NCBI GenBank assembly: GCA_041397845.1
Contig: JAWKVW010000017.1
Coordinates: 3,503-67,502, forward strand
Source: Hyphomicrobiales bacterium
Lineage (GTDB): Bacteria > Pseudomonadota > Alphaproteobacteria > Rhizobiales > JAKPQE01
DNA: 64,000 nucleotides
Reading direction: 5' to 3'
This document shows positions 8,251 through 64,000 of this stretch, piece after piece (position 1 is the stretch's first letter; every line of letters starts with the position of its first letter). A program made the position numbers and the translations under genes. Under the pieces are notes generated by a model. It made no database searches. It was not told where the DNA came from and was given only the letters and a program-made list of their open reading frames with translations.

Positions 8251-8263
8251 GGGGGATCCGATC

Positions 8264-9147: not shown

Positions 9148-9150
9148 TAC

Positions 9151-10029: not shown

Positions 10030-10030
10030 T

Positions 10031-19503: not shown

Positions 19504-20013
19504 TCAGATCGACCGGCGCCGGATCGCGATCGCGATATCCTGAAATGCCTCGGCGATGCCTTCGCCGGTCCTGGCGCTGGTCCGCACCAGCACGTCCGGC
19601 CGGACCGCGAATTCCGGCTCCTCGAGCGGCCCGTTCTCGACAAGATCGATCTTGTTGAGGATCGCTGCCGTCGGCCGGCCGGGCTTTGCCTCGGCGAACT
19701 GGGCAACGAGCTCGGCCATCTTGGCCATCGAGTTCGGCCGGGTGACGTCGGCAACGATGAGCGCGCCCGCCGCGCCTTTCAGATAGATGGTCGAGAAGAT
19801 CGACAGGCCGAAATCGCCGTCCGTGTCCCAGAGCACGAACCGTATCGTCTCCTGTTTGCCTTCCCAGTCGTAAGTGCAGTCATGGGTGTAGATGTCGACG
19901 CCGATCGTTGCCTTGTAATCGGCATCGAACCGGTCGAAGACGAACCTGTTGGCGATCGACGTCTTGCCGACGCCGATGTCGCCTAGGATCATGATCTTCT
20001 GGGCAATGGTCAT
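19504..20013 (-). CDS. Ras-superfamily small GTPase (Rab/Ras-like, 169 aa)
   Basis: Motifs present are G1 GDIGVGKT, switch I YKATIGVD, G3 WDTDG, G4 NKID and G5 TSAR. The ATG lies 6 nt after the stop of the upstream OmpA-like ORF. Confidence 0.85.
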   Translation of the reverse strand: MTIAQKIMILGDIGVGKTSIANRFVFDRFDADYKATIGVDIYTHDCTYDWEGKQETIRFVLWDTDGDFGLSIFSTIYLKGAAGALIVADVTRPNSMAKMAELVAQFAEAKPGRPTAAILNKIDLVENGPLEEPEFAVRPDVLVRTSARTGEGIAEAFQDIAIAIRRRSI

Positions 20014-20019
20014 CTCGCG

Positions 20020-27182: not shown

Positions 27183-27310
27183 GATCGGGCTCCTCGCATC
27201 GGCCGGGACGGTCCCTTTTCCGATGTGTGCCCGCCGCGCCGTCGGCACCAGAGGGGTGCCACGGAATGTCGCTGTTCGAATCCGACGGGTTTTGACGGCC
27301 TTGCCGAGAC

Positions 27311-42438: not shown

Positions 42439-43782
42439 TCAGCGCTCCGAGAAGGCGGTTTCGACGGCGTTGTAGACCGGCTTCAGGATGTAGCGCAGCA
42501 GCGACTTGTCGCCGGTCACGATCTGTCCCTGAACCACCATGCCGGAAAAGATCGGCTTCATCAGCCGGTTCGATTCGATCGCCTCGAGATCGAGCGCGAT
42601 GTCGGCCTTGTAGTAGTAGTCGCCGGTCTGCGGGTTCTGGTAGGTGGTCGGCGACAGCGTCTCGACATTGCCGTAGAGAATGCCGTCGCGCTGCATGTCG
42701 TAGGTCGAAACGATGAGCCGCACCCGGTCGCCCGGCTCGATGTAGCCGATGTCGTTCGGGCGCACCTGCAGTTCGGCGATGAGCTTGCCCTCGACCGGCA
42801 CCATCTCGACGATCGTCTCGCCGGGCCGCACCACGGCGCCCGCTTCCTTCGGCACGATCGAATGGACGATGCCCGCCGCCGGCGCCCGGATGACCAGACG
42901 CTCGACCCGGTCGCCGAGCTTGACGAGGATTTCGCGGTTCTCGGCAAGCTGCGCCTGCGCCTTGGAAATGCTTTCGCCGAGCTGCTGCTCCTCCTTGGCT
43001 CGCGCTTCGGCGAGCACCGCCTCGGCCTCGCGCAGCGCCTCCTCGGCGTTGATCAGGCCGTGAAAGCTCTTCGAGCGCTCGGACTTGAGCTGCAGATAGG
43101 CGCTTTCCGCCGTCAGGACGGAGTTGCGCGAGGCATAGCCCTGATTGGCCAGACGCTTGCGCGTCGCGAACTTGCTTTCCTCCAGCTCGAGCTGGCGATC
43201 GAACGCGGCAAGCTGGTCGCGCATCAGGTCGACTTCGGTCCGCTTCTGCTGCGCCCGGCTTTCAAAGGTCGCAAGCGCCGTCCGCCGGCGCTCCCGCTCG
43301 GCCGCGAGCAGCCGGCCGTGCTCGGCGACGAGATCGGGAAAGGTTGCGGCATATTTCGAGAAATCCGGCTCGGCTTCGGTCCGCACGGCCTCGAGCCGCT
43401 GCACCTCCATGTCGAAGCTGGCGACCCGCGCCTCGATCTGGCCGTTCTCGCCGTTCGCCTGCGCCTCCGCCAGATAGATCAGCGGCTCGCCCTTGGCCAC
43501 GACCTGTCCGGCATGCACCGGGATCGACCGTACGATGCCGCCTTCGAAATGCTGCACCTCGAGGACCGAGCCCTGCGGCACGATCTGGCCCGGCGCCGCG
43601 CTCATTTCCCGGATCGGAATGATGGCCGAAAGCAGGATGGTGCCGAATACGGCAATGCTGAGGACGGAAAGAATGCCCCTCAGGAATTTCAGGCGCACAT
43701 GCCGCTCGACTTCGATGGGAATCCCGAAATAGCGGGGGTCCCCGAAGGAGCGGTCGGCCGACCGGAGCAACGACAGACTCAT
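42439..43782 (-). CDS. Type I secretion membrane fusion protein (HlyD family)
   Basis: 447 aa with an N-terminal TM segment, a long coiled-coil hairpin and beta-barrel/lipoyl segments. It is the last gene of the ABC-ABC-MFP operon. Confidence 0.88.
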   Translation of the reverse strand: MSLSLLRSADRSFGDPRYFGIPIEVERHVRLKFLRGILSVLSIAVFGTILLSAIIPIREMSAAPGQIVPQGSVLEVQHFEGGIVRSIPVHAGQVVAKGEPLIYLAEAQANGENGQIEARVASFDMEVQRLEAVRTEAEPDFSKYAATFPDLVAEHGRLLAAERERRRTALATFESRAQQKRTEVDLMRDQLAAFDRQLELEESKFATRKRLANQGYASRNSVLTAESAYLQLKSERSKSFHGLINAEEALREAEAVLAEARAKEEQQLGESISKAQAQLAENREILVKLGDRVERLVIRAPAAGIVHSIVPKEAGAVVRPGETIVEMVPVEGKLIAELQVRPNDIGYIEPGDRVRLIVSTYDMQRDGILYGNVETLSPTTYQNPQTGDYYYKADIALDLEAIESNRLMKPIFSGMVVQGQIVTGDKSLLRYILKPVYNAVETAFSER

Positions 43783-46058: not shown

Positions 46059-47827
46059 GCCGCCCCCCCGAAGCTTGCCGCGGGCGCAGTGGCGAAGGCG
46101 GGCGGATCGGCGGTTCGTCCGGGTGGCGCGGCGTCGCGCGCCGGCGCCAGGCTGCCCGCCTCGATGCGCACGAGCTGGTCGGCAAGGGCGAAGTAGGACG
46201 GCCGGCTCGTCGCGATGATGATTGTCGCTTCACCGCGAAGGCTGGCGAGATAGCGGATCAGCGCCTCGTCGGCGGCCTGGTCGAGATAGGTCTGCGGCTC
46301 GTCGAGAATGACGAGTTTCGGCAGCCGCATCAGCGCCCGCGTCAGCACCACCTGCTTCAGCACGCCGGCCGGCAGCAGGTTGCCCGAACCGTCCCGGAGC
46401 GGCGTCTCGTAGCCGAGCGGCAGCAGCGCGACGCGCTCGTCGAGAAGGAGGAGCTGGGCGACCTCGCCGGCTTCCTCGGCGATGTTGACGTGGCCGCCAA
46501 GGGTCAGGTTGTCGACGATCGAGCCGTTGAAGAACGACAGGTCGCGCGACACGAAGGCAAGGTCGGCGTAGGGCGCGGCGCCATCGTGCCGCAGCGTCTC
46601 GCCGGCAACGAGGATGCGGCCCTCCTCGACGGTCTCAAGGCCGGCGAGCGAGCGAAGGATGTGCGTGCCGGCGGCGCCGGCATTGGCAATGACGAGACAT
46701 TCGCCCGGGGCAATCTGGAGGTCGAGACGGACGGCCGCGTCGCCGCCATGCGGCGTGACCGCCGCCGCAGCGCGGATCTCCGGTGCCGCGGACCAGTGCA
46801 CCGCCTCGATCGTGGTCTCGCCGACCGGCGGCAGATCGAGCGCCGGCTGCAGCATCTGCCGCGCCGCCTCGGCCGCCTGCACGTCGTTCGAGATCGAGAT
46901 GACCCTGCTTGCCGACTGCATCATCCGCCCGGTGAGCAGGCTGCAGCAGGCGACTGCGCCGGTCGAGATGTGACCTTCGGCGGCGAGCAGGCCGCCGAGC
47001 GTCAGGACGCCGAGCGTCGCCATCGAGCCGAGCGTCGAGGTCATCACGAATGCCCGGTCCGACGCCTTGATGAGCTCGTAGAGGATCGGTCCGGTGGTCT
47101 TCTGCAGCCGCTCGTGCCGCCGCTTGATGACCTCTTCGGCACCGAGGCTCTTGATCGTCTCGATGTTGCGCAGGATCTCGGTCAGGAAGTCGTTCGTCCG
47201 CACCTCGGATTCGTCGCGCTTGCGGTATTGCGCGAACAGCCGTTTGCCGGCCATGCTCACCGAGATGCCATAGGCCGCGATGATGCCAACCGGCGCCAGC
47301 ACGACAACGCCGCCGATCATCGCCATCAGCACCACGTTGATGATCATGAACGGCAGGTCGACGAGGGCGAGGCGCGACTGGCTGCTGTAATATTCGGCGA
47401 TCTTCTGGACCGCGTTCAGGCTGTCATTGCGCTCGCTGAGCTTCTGGAAGCCGCCCTCGTGCACCAGCAGCCGGGAATAGCACTCGTTCGAGACCGAAAG
47501 GGCAAAGGCCATGGCGCCATAGCCCATGATCGCATAGCGCGCGATCTTCAGGACGGCCTCGAGCAGGAAGACGACGGCGAGCATGACGAGGAACATCGTC
47601 AGCGTCGAACTGGCCTGGTTCGGAATGACGCGATCATAGATCTGCAGGACGACGAGCGGCATGGCGAGGCCGAGCAGGTTGATCGCCAGGCTTGACATCA
47701 ACACCGACTTCCGCGGCTTCAGGAAATCCTGCGCGGTCCGGCGCGGCGCGACGGCAGGCGCAGCGGCGCCAAACGCCGTCGCCTTGCGGCTCCCTGCCCG
47801 ACCAATGCCCATCGTTGTTCCCGCCAA
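46055..47827 (-). CDS. Second T1SS-type ABC protein (PrtD-like TMD) with a degenerate nucleotide-binding domain
   Basis: 590 aa with a T1SS-type TMD (LQIYDRVIPN). The Walker A position reads NAGAAGTH (no Lys), the signature position reads LPAGV and the H-loop reads ATSRPS. Walker B LVILDEP is retained. The stop overlaps the next ABC gene's start (ATGA). The exact start is uncertain (MGIG... or later). Confidence 0.8.
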   Translation of the reverse strand: MAGTTMGIGRAGSRKATAFGAAAPAVAPRRTAQDFLKPRKSVLMSSLAINLLGLAMPLVVLQIYDRVIPNQASSTLTMFLVMLAVVFLLEAVLKIARYAIMGYGAMAFALSVSNECYSRLLVHEGGFQKLSERNDSLNAVQKIAEYYSSQSRLALVDLPFMIINVVLMAMIGGVVVLAPVGIIAAYGISVSMAGKRLFAQYRKRDESEVRTNDFLTEILRNIETIKSLGAEEVIKRRHERLQKTTGPILYELIKASDRAFVMTSTLGSMATLGVLTLGGLLAAEGHISTGAVACCSLLTGRMMQSASRVISISNDVQAAEAARQMLQPALDLPPVGETTIEAVHWSAAPEIRAAAAVTPHGGDAAVRLDLQIAPGECLVIANAGAAGTHILRSLAGLETVEEGRILVAGETLRHDGAAPYADLAFVSRDLSFFNGSIVDNLTLGGHVNIAEEAGEVAQLLLLDERVALLPLGYETPLRDGSGNLLPAGVLKQVVLTRALMRLPKLVILDEPQTYLDQAADEALIRYLASLRGEATIIIATSRPSYFALADQLVRIEAGSLAPARDAAPPGRTADPPAFATAPAASFGGAA

Positions 47828-47979: not shown

Positions 47980-50900
47980 ATGAATTATCAGGGCGATTTC
48001 CTGAAGCCAAAATCAAATATTACAATCGACGATATACTCGCGAATCCCGACGCGAACGAAACAAAACAGAAACATATCAATTCGATAGTCAACGTACAGC
48101 CTGAATATTCGGTTGTGCGTTATGATATCGTCAATCCACTGCTTTATCTGGACTTCAAGGGTGTCGGAATTCTAACGTCGGCAATAGCATTCGGCCGATT
48201 GCTGTTTCAGGGAACTGATGCTTATACATATCCCGTCGAGAATATCGAGGCGATCATTGCTGCCGCCGGCGGTGATGGCATCGACCGCCTGTCGGCCCGG
48301 CAGGGTTGGCTCGACGCGCCGCTGGTCGAGGAAGAGGCCGTTTATTCCAGCGGCAATGACGACCTCTCCGTCTGGCAGGGCGCCGATTTCCGGGCGGGCG
48401 AGACATTCGGTCACGGCGCCCATCGTCCGGTTGATGCCGCTGGCGACCTGACGCGCGCGCACCGCCTGCCGGTCGATGCGCCCGTCCCCGGCGCCGCCGC
48501 AAGGATTGGCACGACGCCGGCCGTCGCCGTCGACGAAGTGGCAGAAGACGATCGGCCGGACGCCCCGCAGGGTCCGCAGCCCGCCGACATGGCGCCGCTC
48601 GATATTCGCCTCGACGCCGGCGCGCTTGCCGAGGGAGTGGCCGCCGGAACGGTCGTCGGCCGGCTCTCGACACTCGACGAGGACGGTGCCGACAGCTTCC
48701 GCTATCAGCTTCTGGCCACGTCGACACCGGGCTTTGCCGTCGTCGGCGACCAGATCGTCGTCGTCGACCCGACGGTCGTCGATTTCGAGGCAATCACCGA
48801 ACTCGTCTTCAATGTGCGGGTGACCGATCGCTTCGGCCACACCCTGACGAAGTCCTTCACCGTGGCGGTCGAGGACGTCAATGAACGTCCGACCGATATC
48901 GTCCTTGCCGGCGGCGGGGTCGACGAGAATGCGATTGCCGGGACGGTCGTCGCGACGCTTTCAGCGGTCGACGAGGACGCCGGCGAGACGTTCAGCTACG
49001 CGATCACGGCCGATCCCTCCGGCTATTTCGAAATCATCGGCAACGAGATCCGGGTGAAGGCCGGCGCATCGCTCGACTTCGAGGCCGCGACCAGCCACGA
49101 CGTCACCGTCCGCGTGACGGATGCCGGCGGCAACAGCTACGACAAGACGTTCACGCTTTCTGTCGCCGACACGGCCGAAAACCTCGTCCTGACCGCCGGC
49201 GACGACATCTTTGCCGATTCCGGCGTGACGGAACTCTCCGTCGACGGCGGCGCCGGCAATGACACGCTGATGGGTGGTCTTGGCGACGACACGCTGCTTG
49301 GCGGCCTCGGTGACGATGTTCTCGATGGCGGCGCCGGCGACAACGAGCTGCATGGCGGCGCCGGCAACGACACCCTGATCGGAACGGTGCCGGGCGACGT
49401 CCTTTATGGCGACGACGGCAACGATACCTTCCTCGTCACCGGTGCGGCGACGATCTCCGGCGGCGATGGCCTCGACGTCATCCTCGGCAGCATCGGCGAC
49501 GATATCTTCGCCCTGCTCGACAATACGATCGAGATGATCGACGGCGGCGCCGGCGTCGACACAGTCGCAGGTACCGGCGGCGATGATGTCATCGACCTCG
49601 CCGGAACGCTGCTGAACGGCGTCGAGCTCATCGATGCCGGGGCGGGCGATGACACGATCATCGGCAGTGCCGGCTCGGACACCATCGAGGGTGGTGCGGG
49701 CAGCGACCATGTCGTCCTGTCCGGCAACTGGTCGGACTATACGATCAGCCATGACGGCGCGACGGGGGCGTATACGCTCGTCGACAACCGCGCCGGCTCG
49801 CCGGACGGCTCTGACGTCATCTCCGGCGTCGAGGTTTTCGAATTCGCCGACCGCACGATCACCGTCGCCGACCCGGCCGATCTGCTCAATGATGCCCCGA
49901 CCGACATCACTGCGACCGGGCCGCTCGCTGTCGACGAAACCCTCGCGAATGGCGGCACCATTGCGCCGGCGTTCGATCCTGCCGGAACCGTGGTCGCGAC
50001 CCTTGGCGTCGTCGACGCCGATGGCGGCGACAGCCACACCTATGCCCTTGCCGAAACCCGCGATGCCGGCGGCTTCGTCGTTGCCGACGGACCGTTCGAG
50101 GTGTTCGAGGACGCTGGCGGCGACTGGATGGTCCGCGTCAAGGCCGGCGCGACGCTCGACTACGAGACGTCGTCGCAATACGCCCTCGACGTCACCGTCA
50201 CCGATGCGGCCGGCGCCAGCTACACCAGGACGCTGACCATCGCCATCAATGACGTGATGGGCACCTATGCCGGCTCGACCGGCGCCGACACCCTGACGGG
50301 CACGTCCGAGGAAGACGAAATCTCGACCGGTGACGGCAACGACGTCATCAATGGCTCGGTCGGCGCCGATACGATCGACGGCGGCGCCGGCGTCGATACC
50401 GTTTCCTACAGCAGCGGCTCCGACGACATCACCGTCGACCTTGCCGCCGGTACCGGCACGGGCGGCCTTGCCGACGGCGACACCTACCGGAATGTCGAGC
50501 GGGTCGTCGGCGGCGCCGGCAATGACACGCTGATCGCCTCCGATGTCGACAGCGGCTACTTCTGGGGCCGGGCGGGCGACGATTCCCTTCTCGGCGGCGC
50601 AGCCGACGACTACCTCTACGGCGGCGATGGTGCCGACACCATCGACGGCGGCAACGGATCGGACTGGGCCCGCTATGGCGATGGCACCGACAGCGTCACC
50701 GTCGATCTCAACGCCGCGACCCAGAGCGGCGGCTTTGCCGAGGGCGACAGGCTCATCGACATCGAGAATGTCGAGGGCAGCCGCGGCAACGACGTCCTCA
50801 CCGGCGATGCCGGCGACAACCGGTTCATGGGCTATGACGGCGCCGACACCATTTCCGGCGGTGCCGGCGATGACGTCCTGCAGGGCTGGGGCTGGTGGAG

Positions 50901-53900
50901 CGGCCAGGGCGAGGGCGTCGATGGCGACGACGTCCTGTCCGGCGGCGACGGCAACGACGTCCTGGAAGGCCAGTTCGGCAACGACACGCTCTCGGGTGAT
51001 GCCGGCAACGACACGCTGACCGGCGGCATGGGCGCCGATCTCGTCGATGGCGGCGCCGGCACCGACACGGCGGTCTTCGCCGGCAATCGCGCCGACTATG
51101 TCATCGGCTATGACGCGGCGACCGACACCTACACGATCGCCGACACGGTCATTGACCGCGATGGCACCGACACGGTCGTCAATGTCGAGAACTTCCAGTT
51201 CGCCGACGGCACCTTCACGGCAGCGACACTGCTCAACGCCATAACCGGCACGGCCGGAAACGACACGCTGACCGGCACCGGCGGCTCCGACATCATCAGC
51301 GGCGGCGCCGGCAACGACACCATCGACGGCGGCGGCGCCGACGATGCGCTCGTGATGACCGGCGCGATCGCCGATTACGACCTCGTCGACAATGGCGACG
51401 GCAGCTTCACCATCACCGATCTGCGCGCCGGCAGCCCGGACGGTAGCGACACCTTCAGCAACATCGAATTCCTGCGATTTGCCGACGTGACCGTCGCGGT
51501 CTCGAGCCTCGTCCTTGGCACGGCCGGCAATGATACGCTCGACGGCACGGCCGGCGCCGACGTCATGTTCGGCAATGGCGGAACGGACAATCTCAACGGC
51601 AGCGAGGGCGCCGATATCCTCATCGGCGGTTCTGGCACGGATTTCGTCCGCTACACCGCCGACACGACCGGCGTCACCATCGATCTGTCGACCGGCACAG
51701 GTTCCGGCGGCCTTGCCGAGGGCGACACCTATTTCGGCATCGAGCGCGCCGTTGGCGGCCTCGCCGACGATCTCCTCATCGGCGACGGCGATGACAACAT
51801 CCTCTATGGCCGCGTCGGCGACGACACCATCGACGGCGGCGCCGGCAACGACAGCCTGTTCGGCGATGGCGGCAACGACGTCGTGTCCGGCGGCGCCGGC
51901 GGCGACCAGATCACCGGCGGTGATGGTGCCGATACGCTCGATGGCGGCGACGGTGCCGACTATCTGAAATATGACAGCGACAGCATCGGCGTGACCATCG
52001 ACCTCGGTGCCGGCACCGCGTCCGGCGGCGAGGCCGAAGGCGACGTCATCTCGAACTTCGAGCATGTCGCCGGCGGCTCCGGCAACGACGTCATCACCGG
52101 CGACGCTGGCGCCAACAGTCTGCTCGGCCGGGCCGGTGACGATGTCCTGTCCGGCGGCGGCGGCAACGACACGCTGCTTGGCGAGGTCGGCAACGACACC
52201 CTTTATGGCGATGACGGCGACGATTCCCTGACCGGCGGCTCGGGCGACGACATCATTGATGGCGGCACGGGCACCGACACCGTCCGCTTCACCGGCGCCC
52301 GCGCCGACTATGTCATCACCTATGACAGCGCCACCGGCACCTACACCATCGCCGACACGGTCGCCGGCCGCGACGGCACCGACACGGTCGTCAATGTCGA
52401 GAACTTCCAGTTCTCCGATGGCACCCTGTCGGCGGCGGCGGTTCTCAATTCCATCGACGGCACGGCCGGCGACGACACGCTGACCGGCACCGACGGCACC
52501 GACATCATCAATGGCGATGCCGGCAACGACACCATCGACGCCGGCGCGGGCGCCGATACGGTCACCGGCGGCGCCGGCAACGACGTCATCGAGGGCGGCG
52601 CCGGCACCGACACGCTCATTCTCTCCGGCAACGCCGCCGACTACGACATCACCGGCGATCCGGCCGGCACGATGGTCATCACCGACCTGCGCGCCGGTTC
52701 GCCCGACGGCACGGACACCGTGTCCGGATTCGAGTTCATCACGTTCGCCGACCGCACCATCGCCGTCGCCGATATCCTTATCGGCACCGACAACGCCGAT
52801 ACGCTTGTCGGTTCCGATGCGGCCAATCTCATCTATGGCCTCGACGACGTCGACGGCAACGACATCCTCAAGGGTGGCGCCGGCGACGACGTCATCATGG
52901 GTGGCGCCGGCATCGACATCATTGCCGGCGGCAGCGGCGCCGACACGCTCGACGGCGGTACGGGCTCCGACTATCTCGACTATCGCGACTCCACGGCCGG
53001 CGTCACCGTCGACATCGCCAGCCAGACGGTGTCCGGTGGCGATGCAGAGGGCGATGTCGTCTCCAATTTTGAAAACGTCTATGGCTCGGATTCTGCGGAC
53101 ACGCTGACCGGCGATGACAGCCGCAACGTCCTTCATGGCTTTGACGGCAACGACACGATCTTCGGCGCCGGCGGTGACGACATTCTGCATGGCCGGGACG
53201 GTGCCGACACCATCGACGGCGGCGATGGCGCCGATACCGCCTCCTACAACTACTCGACGGCCGGCGTCACCGTGAACCTTGCGACCGGCACGGGCAGTGG
53301 CGGCGAGGCCGAGGGCGATGTCCTCTACAATATCGAGAACGTCCGCGGCTCGAACCACGATGACGTCATCACCGGTGATGCCGGTGCCAACACGCTGACC
53401 GCCGAGGACGGCGACGACACCATCGACGGCGGCGGCGGCAACGACATCGTCGATGGCGGGGCCGGCACCGACACCCTCGTCCTGTCCGGCAACTGGTCCG
53501 ACTACGAGATCACCTATGCCTCGGGAACCGGCGCCTACACGTTGACCGACCGGCGCGCCGGCTCGCCGGATGGCACCGACACGGTCACCGGTGTCGAGAT
53601 CTTCCAGTTCGCCGACCGCTCCATCACCGTCACCGACCCGGCCGACCTGCTGAACGAGGCGCCGACGGATCTCGCCTTCACGGGCGGCTCCGCCGACGAG
53701 AATGCCGCGAACGGCACGCTGGTCGCGACCGCCACCGCGACTGATGGCGATGCCGGCGACGTCCTGACCTACAGCCTCCTCGACGATGCCGGCGGCGCAT
53801 TCGCGATCGATGGAACGACCGGCGCGATCACCGTCGCCGATGCAACGAAGCTCGACTACGAAACCGCCGCGACCATGGACATTGTCGTCCGCGTCACCGA

Positions 53901-56109
53901 TGCCGGCGGCCTCACCCATGACGAGACGGTGACGATTTCGCTCGCCGATCTCGACGAGTTCGACGTGACGACGCCCGTCGATGCTGATGCGGCGGCGAAT
54001 GTCGTTGCCGAAAATGCCGCCGGCGGCACCACGGTCGGCATCACCGCAAGCGCCGCCGATGCCGACGGCACGACCAGCGCGGTCACCTATTCCCTCGTCG
54101 ACGCGGTGGGTGATCCGGTCGTCGGCGGACCGTTCGTCATCGATGCCGCGACCGGCGTCGTCACCGTCGCCGACGGCGCCGTGCTCGACTATGAGGCCGC
54201 GGCCAGCCACACCGTCTATGTCAAGGCGGCGAGCGCCGATGGCTCCTCGGCAACCGAGACCTTCACGGTCAATCTGTCCGACGTCAACGAAACGGCTGTC
54301 TCCGCGGTTTCCGACAGCGCAGCGGCGGCAAACGCGGTCGACGAGAACGCCACTGTCGGCAGCCTCGTCGGCATCACCGCGCTGGCGAGTGACGCCGACG
54401 GCACCGATACCGTCACCTACGCCCTGACCGATGATGCCGGCGGCCGCTTTGCCATCGATGCAACGACCGGTGTCGTCACCGTTGCTGGCAGTCTCGATGC
54501 CGAGACGGCGCTGTCCCACGTCATCGAGGTCACCGCCACCTCGACCGATGGTTCGACCTCGGTCGCGACCTTCACCATCGCCGTCAACGACCTCAACGAG
54601 ACCGCGATCAGCGCGATCTCCGACGCCGACGCGACTTCCGGTCCAGTCGCCGAATCCGCCGCGATCGGCAGCGCCGTCGGCATCACCGCCTATGCGGGCG
54701 ATCTCGACGCCACCGCGACCGTCACCTACAGCCTCACGTCAAACCAGGGCGGCTTCTTTGCCATCGACGCCAATACCGGCGTCGTCACCCTTGCCGGAGC
54801 GCTCGACTACGAAACCGCCCAGAGCCACACCATCACGGTCACCGCAACTTCGTCCGATGGCTCGACCTCGACGCGCAGCTTCACCATCGACGTCGGCGAC
54901 GTCGCCGAGACGATCACCGGCACCGCCGGCAACGACGTTCTCTCCGGCACCATCGGCCAGGACGTCATGCTCGGCCTTGCCGGCAACGACACGCTGGTCG
55001 CCAGCGCCGCCGCCGACAGCCTCGATGGCGGCGACGGCATTGATACCGCCGACTATTCGGCCTCGGCGACCGGCGTCACCATCGACCTTGCAAGCGGAAC
55101 TGGCTCGGGCGGCGATGCGGCCGGCGACACGCTGACCGCGATCGAGAACGTCGTCGGCTCGAACACCGGCGCCGATGCGATCACTGGCGACGGCAACACC
55201 AATTCCCTCGAGGGCGGCGGCGGCAACGACACCATCGACGGCGGCGCCGGCGCCGATACGATCGATGGCGGCGACGGCAACGACGTTCTCTATGGCGGCG
55301 CCAACACGACGGGTGCCGACCAGATTCATGGCGGCGCCGGTGACGACACCATCGACGGCGGCACCGGGCTGAACTGGATCTGGACCGGCTCGGGCGCCGA
55401 CACCGTCGTCAATGGCGGCGGCAACGACATCCTGATCTACGAGGATTCGGACGCTGCCGTGACCGTCGACCTCACCGCCAACACCGCGTCCGGCGGCTAT
55501 GCCGAGGGCGACGTTTTTGGCGACAGCGTCTATGGCGTCAACGGCTCGGCCTTCGACGACGTGCTGACCGGCGATGCCGGCGGCAACTGGCTGCGCGGCC
55601 TTGCCGGCGACGACACCATCTTCGGCCTCGATGGCGGCGACACCATTCGCGGCGAGGCCGGCAACGACACCATCGACGGCGGCGCCGGCACCGATACGGT
55701 GTCTTTCTCGGGCAACTTCACCGACTATCTCATCCGGCGCAGCGGCGACAGCCTCATCGTCACCGACCAGCGCCCCGGCTCGCCCGATGGCACCGACACG
55801 CTTCTCAATGTCGAGACGCTGCAGTTCGCCGACGGCGCCGTCAGCGTCATCCTCGATGCCGACGGCGGCACCCTGATGGCCGGCGACGGCCGCAGCATCA
55901 TCCTCGGTGGCGTCGGCATCGATACCGACAAGAACATCGTCTACGACGAGGGCGGCGACGACCTCATCCTGCTGCAGGACGGCCGCAACGTCGTCTACAC
56001 CGGCGCCGGCAACGACACCGTCATCGGCGGTGCCGTCGGCACCGACCACATTTACGGTTCCGCCGGCGCCGACTGGTACGACGGCGGCGGCGGCCCAACG
56101 CCCATATGA
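47980..56109 (+). CDS. Giant secreted RTX/cadherin-like repeat protein, 5' segment (2709 codons, ends at a TGA inside a frame-disturbed patch)
   Basis: It contains many GGxGxDxUx nonapeptide runs (GGAGNDTLMGGLGDDTLLGGLGDDVLDGGAGDNEL...). Cadherin-like repeats have DENxxxG/DxDxG/NExPTD linkers. A ~50-aa module ...DY.ITYD..TGTYT..D.R.GSPDGTDT....E.F.FAD recurs. The gene is divergent from the T1SS operon. Confidence 0.9.
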   Translation: MNYQGDFLKPKSNITIDDILANPDANETKQKHINSIVNVQPEYSVVRYDIVNPLLYLDFKGVGILTSAIAFGRLLFQGTDAYTYPVENIEAIIAAAGGDGIDRLSARQGWLDAPLVEEEAVYSSGNDDLSVWQGADFRAGETFGHGAHRPVDAAGDLTRAHRLPVDAPVPGAAARIGTTPAVAVDEVAEDDRPDAPQGPQPADMAPLDIRLDAGALAEGVAAGTVVGRLSTLDEDGADSFRYQLLATSTPGFAVVGDQIVVVDPTVVDFEAITELVFNVRVTDRFGHTLTKSFTVAVEDVNERPTDIVLAGGGVDENAIAGTVVATLSAVDEDAGETFSYAITADPSGYFEIIGNEIRVKAGASLDFEAATSHDVTVRVTDAGGNSYDKTFTLSVADTAENLVLTAGDDIFADSGVTELSVDGGAGNDTLMGGLGDDTLLGGLGDDVLDGGAGDNELHGGAGNDTLIGTVPGDVLYGDDGNDTFLVTGAATISGGDGLDVILGSIGDDIFALLDNTIEMIDGGAGVDTVAGTGGDDVIDLAGTLLNGVELIDAGAGDDTIIGSAGSDTIEGGAGSDHVVLSGNWSDYTISHDGATGAYTLVDNRAGSPDGSDVISGVEVFEFADRTITVADPADLLNDAPTDITATGPLAVDETLANGGTIAPAFDPAGTVVATLGVVDADGGDSHTYALAETRDAGGFVVADGPFEVFEDAGGDWMVRVKAGATLDYETSSQYALDVTVTDAAGASYTRTLTIAINDVMGTYAGSTGADTLTGTSEEDEISTGDGNDVINGSVGADTIDGGAGVDTVSYSSGSDDITVDLAAGTGTGGLADGDTYRNVERVVGGAGNDTLIASDVDSGYFWGRAGDDSLLGGAADDYLYGGDGADTIDGGNGSDWARYGDGTDSVTVDLNAATQSGGFAEGDRLIDIENVEGSRGNDVLTGDAGDNRFMGYDGADTISGGAGDDVLQGWGWWSGQGEGVDGDDVLSGGDGNDVLEGQFGNDTLSGDAGNDTLTGGMGADLVDGGAGTDTAVFAGNRADYVIGYDAATDTYTIADTVIDRDGTDTVVNVENFQFADGTFTAATLLNAITGTAGNDTLTGTGGSDIISGGAGNDTIDGGGADDALVMTGAIADYDLVDNGDGSFTITDLRAGSPDGSDTFSNIEFLRFADVTVAVSSLVLGTAGNDTLDGTAGADVMFGNGGTDNLNGSEGADILIGGSGTDFVRYTADTTGVTIDLSTGTGSGGLAEGDTYFGIERAVGGLADDLLIGDGDDNILYGRVGDDTIDGGAGNDSLFGDGGNDVVSGGAGGDQITGGDGADTLDGGDGADYLKYDSDSIGVTIDLGAGTASGGEAEGDVISNFEHVAGGSGNDVITGDAGANSLLGRAGDDVLSGGGGNDTLLGEVGNDTLYGDDGDDSLTGGSGDDIIDGGTGTDTVRFTGARADYVITYDSATGTYTIADTVAGRDGTDTVVNVENFQFSDGTLSAAAVLNSIDGTAGDDTLTGTDGTDIINGDAGNDTIDAGAGADTVTGGAGNDVIEGGAGTDTLILSGNAADYDITGDPAGTMVITDLRAGSPDGTDTVSGFEFITFADRTIAVADILIGTDNADTLVGSDAANLIYGLDDVDGNDILKGGAGDDVIMGGAGIDIIAGGSGADTLDGGTGSDYLDYRDSTAGVTVDIASQTVSGGDAEGDVVSNFENVYGSDSADTLTGDDSRNVLHGFDGNDTIFGAGGDDILHGRDGADTIDGGDGADTASYNYSTAGVTVNLATGTGSGGEAEGDVLYNIENVRGSNHDDVITGDAGANTLTAEDGDDTIDGGGGNDIVDGGAGTDTLVLSGNWSDYEITYASGTGAYTLTDRRAGSPDGTDTVTGVEIFQFADRSITVTDPADLLNEAPTDLAFTGGSADENAANGTLVATATATDGDAGDVLTYSLLDDAGGAFAIDGTTGAITVADATKLDYETAATMDIVVRVTDAGGLTHDETVTISLADLDEFDVTTPVDADAAANVVAENAAGGTTVGITASAADADGTTSAVTYSLVDAVGDPVVGGPFVIDAATGVVTVADGAVLDYEAAASHTVYVKAASADGSSATETFTVNLSDVNETAVSAVSDSAAAANAVDENATVGSLVGITALASDADGTDTVTYALTDDAGGRFAIDATTGVVTVAGSLDAETALSHVIEVTATSTDGSTSVATFTIAVNDLNETAISAISDADATSGPVAESAAIGSAVGITAYAGDLDATATVTYSLTSNQGGFFAIDANTGVVTLAGALDYETAQSHTITVTATSSDGSTSTRSFTIDVGDVAETITGTAGNDVLSGTIGQDVMLGLAGNDTLVASAAADSLDGGDGIDTADYSASATGVTIDLASGTGSGGDAAGDTLTAIENVVGSNTGADAITGDGNTNSLEGGGGNDTIDGGAGADTIDGGDGNDVLYGGANTTGADQIHGGAGDDTIDGGTGLNWIWTGSGADTVVNGGGNDILIYEDSDAAVTVDLTANTASGGYAEGDVFGDSVYGVNGSAFDDVLTGDAGGNWLRGLAGDDTIFGLDGGDTIRGEAGNDTIDGGAGTDTVSFSGNFTDYLIRRSGDSLIVTDQRPGSPDGTDTLLNVETLQFADGAVSVILDADGGTLMAGDGRSIILGGVGIDTDKNIVYDEGGDDLILLQDGRNVVYTGAGNDTVIGGAVGTDHIYGSAGADWYDGGGGPTPI

Positions 56110-56510
56110 TCTGCTAGCTCATCGGCGACCGGCGTGACCGTCGACCTGACGACCGGCGCTGCCTCGGGCGGCGACGCCGAGGGCGATACCCTCATCGACA
56201 TCGCCGCGGTCAGCGGCTCCGATACGCCGACGTTCTCACCGGCACCTGGGTCGGCGGCGAAGGCGGCAGCGACCTGATCGCCGGCACGGACGGCGATGAG
56301 CGTGTACCTGATGGGCGGCGGCGGCAACGACACCATCGATGGCGGCACCGGCGCCGACACCGCATGGTTCACCGGCAACTGGTCCGACTACGCCGTCACC
56401 TATGACGGCGGCACGGATACCTACACCGTCACCGACCGCCGTGCCGGATCGCCAGACGGCGTCGATGTCATCAGAAATGTCGAGTTCTTCCACTTTGCCG
56501 ATGGCACTGT
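56110..56510 (+). other. Frame-disturbed patch joining the two halves of the giant gene
   Basis: Coding-like sequence hops frames 1>2>1>3>1>3. The segments are YDLLAH (frame 2), SSATGVTVDLTTGAASGGDAEGDTLIDIAAVSGSD (frame 1), YADVLTGTWVGGEGGSDLIAGTDGDERV (frame 3) and YLMGGGGNDTIDGG...FHFADGTV (frame 1), followed by SAADVLNDAPTD (frame 3). Confidence 0.8.
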
Positions 56511-59500
56511 AGCGCTGCCGACGTCCTCAACGACGCGCCGACCGACCTCGGTCTCAGCGCGACCGCCGTCGACGAGAACACTGCGAACGGCACTACTGTC
56601 GCCAATGTCTCGGTGACCGACGCCGACGCCCTCGACAAGTTCACCTATGCGCTCGTCGACGATGCCGGCGGCGCCTTCACGATCAATACGGCGACCGGCG
56701 CCATCACCGTTGCCGATGCAACGAAACTCGACCATGAGACCGCCGCGACCCTCGACATCACCGTGCGCGTCACCGACGCCGGCGGCCAGAGCTACGACGA
56801 GGCCTTCACCCTCGACATCAACGACATCAACGAGGCGCCGACCGATCTCGTCGTCGGCCTGTCGGCAACGACCTCGCCGGTGAGTGCGGCCGATGCCGCC
56901 GGCCTCACCTTCGATGGCCTCACCGGCCGGGTTGTCGTCGAGAACTCCGCCGACAGCAGCCTCGATATTGCAGGCTCGATGACCATCGAGGCGACGTTCA
57001 TCTGGGACGATGCCGACGCCACCGACGGCGAGATCATCATCAACAAGGAGTCCTCGTATGAGGTCGCCGTCTTTGCCGATGGTCACCTGAAATATGCGTT
57101 CATGCAGGACGGCGGTAGCTGGGTCTGGATCGATACCGGCTACTACGTCACCGCCGGCGAGCCGACCTCGATCTCGCTCGTTGCCGATACGGGCACGGCA
57201 ACCACTGCCCTTTATGTGAATGGCGGCCTCGTCGCTGATGGCCTCTATGGCGTCACGGCGTTCGCCAGCACCGACTACGACGTCTGGATCGGCGACCGTT
57301 CGCAGAGTTCAACACTGGCGGGCCTGTATTCGTCCGGCGCGAATTTCCACGGCACCATCCAGTCGGTCCGCGTCTGGAACACCGCGCTTGCCGCTGGCGA
57401 GGTCAATGTCGACACCGTCGACGGCTCCCATCCGCATGCCGCCGACCTTCTCGTCGATTTCGATTTCACCGGTGTTTCCGGCGCGACCGTCGCGGATCTC
57501 ACCGGCAATTTCACCGGCCAGCTTCAGGAAGGTGTGGCACCGGCAACGACCATCGTCGTCGCCGAGTCGGCCGCCGGCGGCACCCTTGTCGCCAATCTCT
57601 TTGCCGTCGACGAGGATGCCGGCGAGACCTTCACCTTCGCCATTGCCAGCGACCCCTCGGGCTTCTTCGAGATCGACCCGGCAACCGGCGCCGTTTCTCT
57701 TGCTGCCGGCGCCGCCCTCGATCACGAGACGGCGGACGGCTATGACATCGTCGTCACCGCCACCGACAGCGGCGGCGCCGTCTATCAGGAGACGGTGCAT
57801 GTCACCGTCACCGACATCAACGAGGCCCCGACGGTGACCATCGTCCCGGCCGCGGCCTCCTTTGCCGAGACGACGGCGCCCGGCACCGTGCTTGCGACCA
57901 TCGCCATCGTCGACCCCGATGCCGGCGACAGCCACACCTACGCGCTGACCGGCTGGGGCGCCGACCATTTCGAGATCGTCGACAATGCCGGCACGCTCGA
58001 ACTGCGCCTGCGGGCCGACGCCATCCTCGACTACGAAGCGATGGCCGGCCGGACGGTGTCCGTCACCGTGACCGATAGCTGGGGCGTTTCGGCGAGCTAC
58101 TCGACGACCATCTCGATCGCTGACACGAATGAGGCACCCGTCCTCGATCTCGTGCCGACCAGCGGCGACTACACGGTCGGCGTCGCCGAAACGGCGGGCT
58201 CGGTGCTCTTCAGTGACGTGTCATACTACAGCACCACGGCGCTTGCCGATGGCGGCTATGTCGTCGCCTGGGAGACCAAGGGCGACGCCGACGGCTCGTC
58301 GAAGATCCTCATCCAGCGCTTCGATGCCTCGAGCAATGCCATCGGAAGCCCTGCGGTCGCCTTCGAAACCACGCAGAACATCGACAATGTCGCGCTGACC
58401 CAGCTTGCCGACGGCACCATCGTGCTTGCCGGCCAGATCAACGTCATCGACGGCAATGGCTGGGGCATCGGCGTTCGCCAGTACGACGCCGACCTGACCC
58501 CGCAAGGCTCGACCGTCACCGTCAACACCTTTGCGACCTCGACCCAGGCGGCACCCGATATCACCGCCCTGTCCGACGGCAGCTACGTCGTCGTCTGGCA
58601 TTCCTATGCCCAGGATGGCGACAACTACGGCATCTTCGGCCAGCGTTTCGCCGCCGATGGCAGCAAGCTCGGCAGTGAATTCCAGATCAACGAAGTCATC
58701 GCCAGCAGCCAGCAGAACCCGTCCGTGACCGGCCTTGCCGGCGGCGGCTATGTCGTCACCTGGACCTCGAATGGTCAGGACGGCTCGAGCTGGGGCGTCT
58801 ATACGCGCATCTATGCCAATGACGGCACGCCGGTCACCGGCGAGTTCGTTGCCGCCTCGACGACTCTCAACGCCCAGTACTGGCCGCAGGTCGTCAGCCT
58901 TCCCGATGGCGGTTATGCCGTCGTCTTCCAGTCCTCCGGCCATGCCGCCGAGGACACCGGCTATGGCGTCTATGCCCGCTTCTTCAACGCCGACGGCACG
59001 GCCCGGGGCGACGAGGTCCACGTCAACACGACCGTCGACAGCAACCAGGATGCCGTCGAGGCGACCGCGCTCGCCGATGGCGGCCTGTTCGTCGTCTGGC
59101 GCAGCTACGCCGCCGACGGCACCACGGATATCTACGCCCAGCGCCTCGATGCCTCCGGCAACCCGGTTGGCGCCGAAATCCTGCTGAGCGATGATCAGGG
59201 CTACCAGAACCTGCCCGAGGTCATCCAGCTCGCCGACGGCACCATCATCGCGACCTGGGATTCGAACGCGACGGGAGACGCGACCCGCGGCATTCACCGC
59301 GTCGAGATCGATCCCGGCACCGGCACGGTCACCGGGAAGACCACACTCACCTATGAGGTGAACCAGAATGCGCCGGCGCCGGACGTCGCCGCGCTCGAGG
59401 GCGGCGGCCACGTCGTCACCTGGACGTCCGTCGATCTGACCGGCTCGGGCTGGGACATCATGGCCCGGCTTTTCGACGCCGACGGCAATCCGGTCGGCGA

Positions 59501-62500
59501 CACCTTCCGGGTCAACACAAATGTGAGCTCGACCCAGTACCAGCCGTCGGTGACGACCTTGCCGGATGGCGGGTTCGCGGTCGCCTATGCGAGCTACAAC
59601 TTTGACGGCAACAGCTATGGCGTCGTTGTCCAGCGTTTCGACGACCTCGGCAATCGCATCGGCGACGAGGTGCTGGTCAACTCCTATTCGACCAACATCC
59701 AGTACAATCCGTCCGTCGCCGCGCTGCCGGACGGCAGTCTCGTCGTCACCTGGTCGTCCTTCCTTCAGGATGGCGATCACTATGGCGTCTATGCCCGCGT
59801 GATTGCCGCCGACGGCACGCCGGTGACCGCCGAGATCGCCGTCAACAATCTGAACACGACGAGCGCCCAGCAGGATTCCCGCGTCACGGTGCTGGCCGAC
59901 GGCCGCTTTATTGTCACCTTCGAGACCGCAACCGGCACGGCGACCGGCGATACCTCCGGCTATTCCGTCGACGCCCGCATCTTTGCCGCCGACGGCACGC
60001 CGGTCACCGACGAATTCCGCCTCAACAGCTACACCGGTTCACAACAGCTCAACCCCGAGATCGCGGCGCTTGCCGATGGCGGCTTCGTCGTCGTCTACGA
60101 CAGCTACCAGACCGAGGGCGCCTTCGGGAATTCCTACGGCATCTACGCCGAGATCTTCGACGCGAACGGCAACCATGTCAGCGGCCAGATCGCCGTCTCG
60201 CCCGCCAATGGCGTTTTCGATCAGGAAGCCGACGTCACCGCCCTCGCCGATGGCGGCTTCTTCGTCGTCTGGCACCAGAGCTACGGTTCGGCAACCACCG
60301 ACAACAAGGTCTTCGGCCAGCGCTTCGATGCGACCGGCGCGGCTGTCGGCGGCGCGGTCGACCTTGGCAGCGGCATCGAGGGCGACCAGCGCTATCCGGC
60401 CGTCACCGAGACGGCCGATGGCGACATCGTCGTGGTCTGGTTTGGCCTCGGCGAGGGTTCCTCGCACGATGCAATCAACCAGATCGTCATTTCGCCGACG
60501 ACGGTCTTCAGCGAGGACACCGCGCCCGGAGCGACCATCGCCGTCATCGATGCCTTCGACCCGGATGCCGGCGACAGCCTGACCTATACGTTGCTCGACG
60601 GCGGCGTTCCGACCGCGAACCATCCGCTGTTCGAGATCGTCGACAACGCCGGCACGATCGAGCTGCGCCTGAAGGCAGGGGCAAGCTTCGACGACGAAAC
60701 ATCGCCGACCGAGACGGTGACGGTGCGCGTCACCGACGCTGCCGGCAACAGCACCGACAGGACGCTGACCATCGACATCGCCGACGGCTGGGATGCCCCG
60801 ACGGATCTCACCGTCGCCGACGGCCTGCGCCTCAACGACGGCGTCACCAACCAGTACGCGGCGATATCGAACTTCGTCGACATGCCGACCAGCACCTTTA
60901 CGGTCGAGGTCTCGTTCGCAAGTGACGGCATGCCGGGCGCCGGCATGCCGCTGCTGTCCTACAATGCCGAAGGCGAGGACAACGAGGTCCTCCTCTATGT
61001 GACAGGCGCGGCTGGCATGTCCGCGTTCATCAACGGCCACAACGAGCCGCTCGGCATTCCGGCATCGGAGATCATCGACGGCTCGCAGCATCAGGTCTCG
61101 CTGACCTGGGATGCCCCGTCCGGTGTCATGACCGTCTATATCGACGGCGTCGAGCGGTATTCGACCACTCTCGATGGCCACCTTGCGATCACCGCCGGCG
61201 GCACGCTCGTCTTCGGCCAGGAGCAGGACACGGTCGGCGGCGGTTTCAACGCGTCCCAGATCTTCGACGGTACCATCTATGAAGTGCGCATCTTCGATGA
61301 TGTCCGCACAGCCCAGGAGATCGCCGACAACGCCAATTCGCCGATCGCCGATCCCGCCAGCGAGCCCGGCCTCGTCGCCGACTGGCAGATGACGCCGAAC
61401 GGCACCGGCGGCATTGCCGACCTTGCCGGCGGCCATGATCTCGTCCTCTACAACGGCGCGGCCCTCGCCACCTCCGTTGCGGTCAACGAGAACACCGCCA
61501 ACGGCGAACACGTCGCCTACGTCGCCGACGTCGTCGACAGCGATGCCGGCGACAGCTTCACCTATTCGCTCCTTGACGATGCCGGCGGCGCCTTCGCCAT
61601 CAATGCCGCGACCGGCGAGATCACCGTCGCCGACAGCGCCCGTCTCGACTACGAAACCGCCCAGACGATGAACATCACCGTCCGCATCACCGATGCCGGC
61701 GGCCTGACCTATGACGAGGTGGTGACCGTCAATATCGCCGACGTCGTCGAGACCATCACCGGCACCGCCGGCAACGATACGCTTTATGGCGGCATCGGCC
61801 GGGACGTCATGCTCGGCCTTGGTGGGAACGACAATTTCTATGGCAGCGCCGGGGCCGACTCCTTCGACGGCGGCACAGGCACTGACGGTGTTCGATACAC
61901 CAACTCGACCCAAGGGCTGACGATCAATCTGACGACCGGTGATGCGACCGGCGATGCGGCAGGCGATACCTATCTCAACATCGACAAGGTGTTCGGCTCA
62001 AGCTACGGCGATGTGATCACCGGTGGCAGCGGCGTGCAGTTCCTGCTCGGCGAGGGCGGCAACGACGTCATTACCGGCTCGTCGGCGGACGAGCGAATTT
62101 ATGGCGGCTCCGGCGCGGATACCCTCGACGGCGGCGACGGCGTTGACTGGCTCCGCTACAGCGACGGCTCTCCGGCCGGCATCACCCTTGACCTTGCGAC
62201 CAACACGGTTTCCGGCGGTCATGCCGACGGCGACGTGTTCAGCAATTTTGAAGCCTACGAAGGCAGTGTCTACGGCGACGTGATGACCGGTTCGTCGGGC
62301 AGTGATTTCCTGATGGGCTATTTCGGCTCGGACACAGTGTCCGGTGGCGACGGCGACGACACGCTTTACGGCGACTATGTCTACGACACGGACAGTTCGG
62401 GTCAGGCCGACACCATCGACGGCGGCGCCGGCAATGACACGATTTACGGCCAGGGCGGCGACGACATCATTCTCGGCGGGACCGGCAACGACACCATCCT

Positions 62501-64000
62501 TGCCGGCGGCGGCAACGACACGATCACCGGCGGCGCCGGCAACGACACCATCGACGGCGGTGCGGTAACCGGCGCCTCGACGGCTCTTGCCCTGGCGGCC
62601 GGCGACGATTCCGTCCATCTCGACGGCCTCGGCGTCGACACCGCCGATGGTGCCAGCAACACCGTCGAGTTCTGGATGAACTGGGACGGCGGCGAGAACC
62701 AGGTGCCCTTCGGCTTCGGCTGGTACACGCTGTGGTTCTACAATGGCAGCTTCGGCTTCAGCACCGGCGCGACCGATATCTACGGCATCGATTCCAGCAG
62801 CCTCGTCGGGAGCTGGCATCATGTCTCGGCGGTTTTCGTCAATGGCGACGTCGCGGCGAGCAAGCTCTACATCGACGGTGTCGAGCAGAACCTCTCCCAG
62901 CTCATGGGCTCGCCCAACGACGGTTCGGCCGTCGCCACGACTGACGCCCGCATTTCCGGCAAGACCACTTTTACCGGCAACAAGTTCGGCGGCGACATCG
63001 CCGAGGTGCGCATCTGGAACGACGAGCGCACCGCCGCGGAAATCGCCGACACCTATGACGAACACCTGACCCAGGGCGACGGTCTCGTCGCCGCCTACGA
63101 CTTCGAGAACATGACCGATGGCACCGACGGCGTCATCGACATCTCTGGCAATGGCGCCGACGGCACTCTCGTCGGCATCACCGCGACGACCGTGACGACC
63201 GGCCCGACCCTGACCGATCCGGGCAACGACGTCGCCGTCTTCAGCGGCAACCGCGCCGACTACACCATCACCTACGACGCCGGCACCGACACCTACACCA
63301 TCGTCGACAACCGCGCCGGCTCGCCGGACGGCACCGACACCGTGACCGGCATCGAGACCTTCCAGTTCGCCGACAGCATCGTCGATGCGACCGCGCCGGC
63401 GGCCGTCATCAACCTCGCCCCGACCGATATTTCATTCACGGCAGGCGTCTCCGGTGCACCCGAGGTCGCAACGGTGACCGGAGCGGACCCGGAAGGGGAC
63501 ACGCTTTCCTATTCGCTGGTCGATGATGCCGGCGGGCTCTTCACCATCGACGCCGCGACCGGGCGGCTCAGCTATTCCGGCTCTCTCGATCCGGCGGCGG
63601 TCGAAGCGCACGACATCACCATCCGGGTGAGCGACCCGCACGGCGCCACCTATGATGAAGTGATGACCGTGACGGTCGGCACCTCCGGCGACGACAATAT
63701 CGTCGGCACGGCGCGCGACGACCTGATCCTTGGCGGCGACGGCTACGACACCATCACCGGCGGCGCCGGCGATGATATGATCGTCCGCGACGTCGGCGAC
63801 GCCACCGACCCGCTGTTCGACATCGGCATCGTCTCGCGTGGCTATGACGTCGCGGCAGGCGGTTCGTTCATCAACCTGAACGGCACATCCTACCAGACGT
63901 CGCGCGGCTATCAGATCATGGTGATCGACGAGAGCGGCAACCTCGTCGCCCGCCAGCAGTTCGACCCCTATGCCAGCGCCGCCAACGCCACGGCCATGGC
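56511..64000 (+). CDS. Giant secreted RTX/cadherin/LamG/propeller-repeat protein, 3' segment (frame 3, open to the window end; absent from the ORF track because no stop lies in the window)
   Basis: Hand translation gives a continuous open frame. It contains cadherin-like repeats and three LamG/ConA-like lectin regions (about 56905-57400, 60826-61335 and 62585-63055, e.g. GTIQSVRVWNTALAAGEV, GTIYEVRIFDDVRTAQEIADN, GDIAEVRIWNDERTAAEIADTY). It also contains RTX blocks and about 14 tandem propeller-like repeats. Confidence 0.85.
58224..60495 (+). repeat. About 14 tandem ~50-58-aa repeats (coding) inside the giant gene, beta-propeller-blade-like
   Basis: The recurrent pattern is [LV]..L.DGG[FY]VV.W.S...DG...G[IV]...R[FY]...G...G.EF.VN......Q..P. 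Example: ITALSDGSYVVVWHSYAQDGDNYGIFGQRFAADGSKLGSEFQINEVIASSQQNPS. Confidence 0.8.

Follow-up and report, generated by a model that had tools for sequence, protein, structure and literature searches.

Proteins that join RTX repeats to cadherin domains were a recognised class by 2010, with examples such as V. cholerae FrhA and RtxL1/L2 (Linhartova et al. 2010, PMC3034196). RTX adhesins are recognised by an N-terminal retention module, tandem extender domains, and a C-terminal β-roll with a type I secretion system (T1SS) signal (10.1101/2025.09.30.679566). In rhizobia, cadherin-like proteins exported by T1SSs act as Ca2+-dependent lectins and bind the producer's own exopolysaccharide (PMC5061743, PMC9298526). 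Here we describe a locus of this general kind from a Hyphomicrobiales bacterium, known from a metagenome-assembled genome (MAG; GCA_041397845.1). The DNA analysed (the window) is a stretch of 64,000 nucleotides, positions 3,503 to 67,502 of the forward strand of contig JAWKVW010000017.1. Its last 16 kb carry an RTX- and cadherin-rich coding region that runs off the window edge, next to genes for a T1SS. We find that this is probably one very large, broken gene whose product is an RTX-family cargo of the adjacent T1SS, and that the break is likelier to be an error in the consensus sequence than decay of the gene.

A giant gene interrupted at a short junction

The + strand is coding throughout from 47980 to 64000, as shown by a GC content at third codon positions (GC3) of 0.83–0.84 in the two long frames, compared with ~0.5 at second positions. 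The coding signal is still open at the window edge, in agreement with the original prediction, which was made from the sequence alone: frame 0 has no stop after 56403, and is open only over 56406–64000. The 5′ piece, open reading frame (ORF) A, occupies 47980–56106 (+) in frame 1 (2709 codons, with its TGA extending to 56109). It begins with an N-terminal region of ~95 amino acids (aa) and a linker, and contains seven cadherin-like domains, seven SPDGTD modules, eight VDL modules and ~54 RTX nonapeptides. The 3′ piece, part B (56514–64000, +), lies in frame 0 and contains six cadherin-like domains, three LamG domains, 14 blade repeats, two VDL modules, one SPDGTD module and RTX blocks, with an unassigned domain from ~63800.

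Between these pieces lies a disrupted junction (56107–56513, +). The coding signal follows frame 1 to 56106, meets the TGA at 56107–56109, resumes in frame 1 (56110–56223), moves to frame 0 (56223–56303), returns to frame 1 (56302–56511) and then continues in frame 0 from 56514. The junction thus contains one in-frame stop and three frameshifts (near 56223, 56302 and 56512) in ~420 bp, and is flanked by 8.1 kb of clean frame before it and 7.6 kb after it. Three-frame translation of 55900–56700 showed an RTX-type peptide that jumps among the frames. Profile hidden Markov models (HMMs) built from the repeats of this gene (internal HMMs) detected a VDL module that begins at the stop codon itself (frame 1, 56107–56226, E 9e-19) and has its tail in frame 0 (56223–56249), an SPDGTD module within the junction (frame 1, 56371–56514, E 2e-30), and the first cadherin domain beyond it (frame 0, 56565–56816, E 7e-36). 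The repaired junction copy was one of the 9–11 seeds of these models, a slight circularity that is immaterial at these scores.

On this sequence evidence, A and B derive from a single ancestral ORF. Its size, at least 5,342 codons, counts the window only, as the 3′ end lies beyond base 64000. We conclude that A and B belong together because recognisable modules continue past the TGA and from frame to frame, because the first possible start in frame 0 is a GTG at 56613, inside a cadherin domain and without a ribosome-binding site, and because no C-terminal-type motif occurs inside the window. The original prediction had described a single gene of more than 5,300 codons. The size holds, but one continuous frame does not, as the stop and the three frameshifts had been passed over.

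The deposited version of ORF A (MEZ5841016.1, ‘cadherin domain-containing protein’, 2,636 aa) begins at 48199, which is residue 74 in our numbering. The true start is probably 47980, and the public start 73 codons late, because the orthologue in a Kaistiaceae-like MAG (L029) conserves Met1. This orthologue aligns from Met1 (MNY...) at 48% identity and is colinear for ~780 aa, after which the two mosaics diverge. At the other end of the window, the last ~65 codons (63800–64000, +; ...GIVSRGYDVAAGGSFINLNGTSYQTSRGYQIMVIDESGNLVARQQFDPY...) belong to an open domain that is unlike every earlier module and is cut by the window edge.

The last 302 aa of the window had a best relative of 50% identity in a scan of genome contigs, LamG domain 2 had no match in a metagenome scan, and a plasmid megablast returned only RTX matches of 40–50 nt. 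The repaired-junction protein found no close homologue; the best local identities among the matches listed were 38–61%, and all of the matches listed were shorter than ~1,360 aa.

Module content of the giant protein

The GGxGxDxUx nonapeptide repeats typical of the RTX family are abundant in both pieces. Pfam HemolysinCabind (PF00353) matched 30 stretches in part A (E 9e-162) and seven in part B (E 2e-38), and regular-expression matches gave ~67 nonapeptides in the repaired translation. The Cadherin family (PF00028) was matched by both pieces (E 4e-68 in A, 3e-57 in B), and the internal HMMs located 13 cadherin-like domains in the repaired translation, in groups of 2, 1, 4, 1, 2, 1, 1 and 1 between RTX and other modules. 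The same models found nine SPDGTD modules of ~50 aa, spanning 49720–63392, and 11 VDL modules. The RTX blocks and the nine or so SPDGTD modules of the original prediction were thus recovered, together with its three LamG/ConA-like regions and ~14 propeller-like repeats (below), while its ‘more than 15’ cadherin-like repeats proved too many.

Pfam Laminin_G_3 matched three stretches in part B (E 1e-38). LamG/ConA-like domain 1 lies at 56913–57441 (+; Laminin_G_2 and Laminin_G_3, part B residues 216–323). LamG/pentraxin-like domain 2 lies at 60807–61319 (+; coordinates from the internal HMM), contains the best Laminin_G_3 stretch (part B residues 1481–1640), and also matched Pentaxin (E 7e-24; 85 bits, cut-off 25). 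LamG/ConA-like domain 3, the third stretch, lies at 62610–63041 (+; internal HMM E 2e-71).

The 14 blade repeats, each of ~55 aa, occupy 58188–60506 (+; internal HMMs). An AlphaFold2 (AF2) model of this region, built with 34 homologues, had a mean predicted local distance difference test score (pLDDT) of 83.9 and was all-β, with four strands per repeat and a low-confidence hinge midway, at residues 395–399. Foldseek matched the model to seven-bladed and tandem propellers with probability 1.00, including GH74, Gemin5, CylK and the CV39L lectin (target-normalised TM-score (TMt) 0.74 for CV39L). The AF2 model and the Foldseek matches thus agree on the four-stranded blades closing into a ring that characterise a β-propeller. 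In many database matches the coverage of the 14-blade query is ~50%, in keeping with a unit of seven blades, and we read the predicted fold as two tandem seven-bladed β-propellers.

We also modelled a representative cassette (53233–53949, +) of VDL module, RTX β-roll, SPDGTD module and cadherin domain (AF2 pLDDT 95.3, predicted TM-score (pTM) 0.82). In the model, β-roll strands recur every nine residues, a five-strand module follows at residues 91–132, and then a β-sandwich. Foldseek matched the cassette to the EC domains of cadherins and protocadherins (24–33% identity), to an A. hydrophila RTX-like structure (9cse) and to the serralysin β-roll (1smp). The prediction suggests that the SPDGTD module continues the β-roll with five strands, and it may form a cap.

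Sequence families in Pfam, NCBIfam and PDB include neither the SPDGTD module nor the 55-aa blade. When the PDB was searched by sequence with the N-terminus, the SPDGTD profile or the blades, no meaningful match emerged: a GH43 hit had E 0.027, and designed Kelch proteins have just ‘GSPDGTD’ in common. Both modules are nevertheless widespread. The SPDGTD profile matched 6,075 cluster representatives (E ≤ 1e-3), with many of the matches in giant proteins, and the blade repeat occurs in >2,400 proteins, partnered by RTX, cadherin, VCBS, T9SS or dockerin modules.

The domain combination, which had been thought unusual, is ordinary, because intact public proteins mix the same modules. Proteins of this kind range from 4,000 to 7,400 aa; for example, one of 4,979 aa (P0343) has eight cadherin domains, 11 SPDGTD modules and 13 blades, one of 5,015 aa (P0418) has cadherin, SPDGTD, blades and three LamG domains, and one of 4,094 aa (P0338) has 15 cadherin domains and seven SPDGTD modules. 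Pfam and NCBIfam found no catalytic, pore-forming or effector domain in the window part of the giant gene, and we rejected its identification as a MARTX or pore-forming toxin, as the cargo has no such domains.

The adjacent type I secretion system

A T1SS operon lies divergent from the giant gene, 152 bp upstream of its start codon and with no gene between them. It encodes two ATP-binding cassette (ABC) proteins and a HlyD-type adaptor, so that the dedicated ABC transporter and membrane-fusion genes expected near an RTX cargo are present, and the T1SS of the original prediction is indeed adjacent.

The gene nearest the cargo encodes the short ABC paralogue (46055–47827, −; ~590 aa), which lacks the N-terminal domain of the long ABC protein and overlaps its gene by 4 nt. 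It scored 260 bits against TIGR03375, aligning from model position 152, and just 35 bits against ABC_tran. Its Walker A lysine is lost (NAGAAGTH) and its C-loop reads LPAGV; the Walker B motif (ILDEP) is retained. Among solved chains, the Aquifex PrtD-type transporter 5l22 comes closest. The long ABC permease/ATPase (43845–46058, −; 737 aa, identical to MEZ5841014.1) has a ~180-aa N-terminal extension followed by Pfam ABC_membrane and ABC_tran. Its Walker A motif is GPSSSGKS, its C-loop LPNGL rather than LSGGQ, and its H-loop TNRPS. The best NCBIfam match, to the LssB-type TIGR03375, scored 423 bits, below the cut-off of 693; the short ABC is likewise closest to this T1SS model and below its cut-off. 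HlyB and PCAT1 are the nearest bacterial relatives of the long ABC with solved structures. The third gene encodes a HlyD-family periplasmic adaptor (42439–43782, −; 447 aa; TIGR01843 301.9 bits against a cut-off of 208.65; Pfam HlyD_3).

The order of cargo (divergent), short ABC, long ABC and adaptor recurs in three other loci. In L029 the long ABC is 67% identical and the cargo is orthologous. In L032 and L034 the identity is ~33%, and the cargos are much smaller (394 aa, L032 3818–5002 (−); 702 aa, L034 4387–6495 (−)). A 447-aa adaptor gene follows the ABC pair in all three. In contrast, loci at 28% identity are ordinary one-ABC systems without the pairing. The LPxG C-loop is common to the relatives, the H-loop histidine is mostly absent, and the Walker A lysine of the short ABC is lost both here and in L029. 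In L032 and L034, the small cargos contain RTX repeats and have ...DFVDIERIQW and ...HFEDMERIEW as their C-terminal ends, and similar ...ER(I)xW-like endings occur in several SPDGTD-bearing proteins. NCBIfam found no named C-terminal signal domain in the two small cargos. From these endings, ...ERI(Q/E)W may be the C-terminal secretion tail motif of this transporter group. That the small cargos carry RTX repeats together with this ending, as T1SS substrates should, supports the view that the giant protein is also a T1SS cargo.

The paired ABC proteins with degenerate ATP-site motifs are the most distinctive feature of the locus. They might represent a distinct T1SS subclass built on an obligate pair of a long ABC protein, with an N-terminal domain, and a short one, a proposal we make tentatively and hold to be somewhat doubtful. 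Such a subclass would have at most one near-canonical ATP site, and would serve cadherin/RTX cargos of 394 to >5,300 aa with a terminal ...ERI(Q/E)W.

Origin of the break

What gives rise to a stop and three frameshifts within a gene that is otherwise open? Two explanations were set aside. Programmed frameshifting was rejected, as three shifts and a stop are too many. Collapse of near-identical repeats was also rejected: the DNA repeats inside the giant gene are only 60–84% identical to one another, which makes such a collapse unlikely.

On balance, a local error in the consensus of the metagenome assembly seems to us likelier than real decay. Dense indel patches in otherwise clean sequence fit an unpolished or heterogeneous MAG consensus better than they fit neutral decay, and an unrelated gene 30 kb away shows a similar dense patch of frameshifts, which further favours an artefact. 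This second gene, for a P-type cation ATPase (24405–27353, −), is fragmented, with all of its breaks within ~26.1–26.8 kb and at least four changes of frame in ~0.7 kb; its Cation_ATPase_N domain, two E1-E2_ATPase parts, DKTG phosphorylation site and C-terminal half are spread over at least four different ORFs. Most of the other scanned genes in the window match their Pfam models end to end.

The main competing explanation is a genuine pseudogene, in which this population truly carries an inactivated giant gene. Were the stop real, the N-terminal product of 2,709 aa would lack a C-terminal signal and therefore should not be exported. The stop and the frameshifts stand in the deposited sequence, the depositor's coding sequence ends at the same stop, and genuine frameshifts are documented in large RTX adhesin genes (10.1101/2025.09.30.679566). 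A clean nonsense codon is also present in another gene of the window, for a maleylacetate-reductase-like (Fe-ADH) protein (33220–34296, +). This is a single in-frame TAG (33760–33762, in ...HCVEAL*SETANP...) at a site where homologues have Tyr and a TAC codon would be expected. However, four lesions in 420 bp against ~15.7 kb of open flanking frame are unlike the spread of lesions in neutral decay, and the same patchiness in the unrelated ATPase gene suggests a property of the assembly. We regard inactivation as a serious possibility, if not quite an even one. Joining of at least two smaller RTX genes through shared repeats, with the error patch as the join, is much less probable. The source is a MAG, the junction sits in repeat-type sequence, and the contig of the relative L029 breaks within its own giant gene. 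Yet the internal repeats are too diverged for collapse, composition and GC3 are equal on either side of the junction, intact proteins of like size and module mix exist, and a k-mer join is not expected to create indels. Least probable of all, to the point of being very nearly dismissible, is that ORF A (47980–56109) and a downstream gene starting past 56406 are two independent genes. The public annotation does present A as a stand-alone 2,636-aa protein, but A ends within an RTX/VDL unit without a C-terminal signal, and the stretch that separates A from B holds a VDL and an SPDGTD module in changing frames. B as a gene of its own was rejected, as the GTG noted above leaves it no plausible start.

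Several points weigh against our overall reading of one broken gene for a secreted binding protein. The junction was judged from the consensus sequence, and the simple TAG in the maleylacetate reductase gene fits a real mutation as well as it fits an error. On the side of secretion, no C-terminal secretion signal was seen in the window, the 3′ end of the giant gene being past base 64000, and no outer-membrane T1SS component is encoded in the window, an absence that is usual for RTX loci (PMC3034196). On the side of function, LamG and propeller folds are no proof of lectin activity, and both the ligand and the Ca2+ dependence are inferred from the protein families.

The N-terminal region and surface anchoring

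The giant protein starts with a conserved region (MNY...QPE.SVVRYDI.NPL.YLD...; 47980–48270, +) that is 44% identical to that of the L029 orthologue. A scan with an alignment of this region found one further relative, on a 2.9-kb activated-sludge contig (L036). NCBIfam and Pfam found no N-terminal retention module in residues 1–207. Ig-like extenders in a long tandem array were not found either; at most four cadherin domains occur in a row. No LapG- or LapD-like genes were present among the scanned ORFs of 1–47.9 kb, or in the 10 kb past the transporter in L029. The RTX blocks occur over the full length of the protein and are not confined to its C-terminus.

These results bear on the comparison drawn in the original prediction with LapA, SiiE and MpIBP, whose defining features were not found here, and on its proposal of a Ca2+-dependent surface adhesin or matrix protein. 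In a LapA/MpIBP-type adhesin, the N-terminus would plug the outer-membrane channel and anchor the protein at the surface until freed by a LapG-like protease. The ~95-aa conserved N-terminal region is followed here by a poorly conserved linker of ~100 aa, and an Ala-Ala-Gly motif occurs at residues 94–97, with a similar motif in L029; together these could be a weak hint of a plug-and-cleavage design. Against this, the retention-module family went undetected, LapG/LapD-like genes were missing from the 48 kb upstream as well as from L029, the RTX blocks are dispersed, and a motif as short as AAG readily arises by chance in an Ala/Gly-rich protein. We therefore consider anchoring of this type unlikely. 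The label of surface-anchored adhesin is unproven, because the retention module and LapG/LapD were not found, while an extracellular binding or matrix role does fit the modules.

Proposed function and significance

Our best reading, from the protein families, is that the giant protein would be a Ca2+-dependent extracellular binding or matrix protein. The unfolded chain would be exported C-terminus first through the pair of long and short ABC proteins, the HlyD-type adaptor, and a TolC-like channel whose gene lies elsewhere. Once the chain has left the cell, Ca2+ would fold the many dispersed β-rolls, each extended by the SPDGTD module after it as a small β structure, and would stiffen the cadherin-like domains to give a long Ca2+-dependent fibre or matrix protein. 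The LamG domains and the two predicted seven-bladed propellers are likely to be ligand-binding and possibly glycan-binding parts, with carbohydrate binding suggested by their fold families. The cadherin-like lectins of rhizobia are a plausible model for such a matrix role.

Because Alphaproteobacteria commonly encode giant exoproteins of the RTX/cadherin kind, the gene alone adds little. However, the public record splits it and starts it 73 codons late, and pseudogene calls in this genome need read-level support, because the window holds several error-like patches. The paired degenerate ABC transporter, the SPDGTD module and the 55-aa blade are the more distinctive elements here, and it would be reasonable to curate them as families. 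They could also serve the study of how a T1SS copes with cargos that differ greatly in size.

Other genes in the window

Elsewhere in the window, a complete-looking cbb3 oxidase cluster (6565–14427, +) encodes subunit I, FixO, FixP, FixG, FixH and a FixI-type P-type ATPase. A small Ras-family GTPase (19504–20019, −; PF00071, E 8e-26) lies beside ORFs without a family match. The maleylacetate reductase gene sits in a hydroquinone/catechol catabolic cluster (27.3–41.7 kb).

Comparison with known systems

The giant protein resembles the cadherin-RTX class in its RTX β-rolls and several cadherin domains, and in T1SS export, which for that class goes with a proposed role in adhesion or biofilm formation. 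It differs from the class in being much larger, in having RTX repeats dispersed over its full length, and in adding LamG domains, two β-propellers and SPDGTD modules; it is known here from the sequence of an alphaproteobacterial MAG alone. Like LapA, MpIBP, SiiE and the A. hydrophila adhesins, it appears to be a T1SS cargo of giant size and modular build that depends on Ca2+ and carries ligand-binding domains (PMC5550230; PMC12077191), and, as here, the genes of RTX adhesins are often mis-annotated or fragmented in assemblies (10.1101/2025.09.30.679566; PMC5550230; PMC12077191). Unlike LapA-type adhesins, it has no recognisable retention module, no near-identical extender array and no LapG/LapD nearby, and its β-rolls are dispersed.

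The Rap/CHDL lectins of Rhizobium, exported by PrsDE, come from the same order and are likewise Ca2+-binding, cadherin-like T1SS cargos; they bind exopolysaccharide and give shape to the biofilm matrix (PMC5061743, PMC9298526). The Rap proteins differ in being small, with one or two CHDL domains, and in using a one-ABC T1SS; the likeness is one of description.

A close parallel to the transporter is RtxB-RtxD-RtxE of the MARTX toxins. There, as here, two ABC proteins and an adaptor are encoded by one operon that diverges from the gene of a giant RTX cargo, and the outer-membrane protein is encoded elsewhere (Boardman & Satchell 2004, reviewed in PMC3034196). In contrast to MARTX loci, the order here is ABC-ABC-adaptor, neither rtxC nor rtxH is present, there is no rtxHCA arrangement, and Pfam and NCBIfam found neither MARTX repeats nor the cysteine protease domain in the cargo. 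Both C-loops are also non-canonical here, and the short ABC protein is without the Walker A lysine. For the propellers, the nearest comparisons are CylK (7ron) and CV39L (6gxs), on which the predicted structures superpose; CylK itself combines an RTX-like domain with a seven-bladed propeller. Sequence identity to these proteins is just 10–16%, and the likeness is one of predicted fold.

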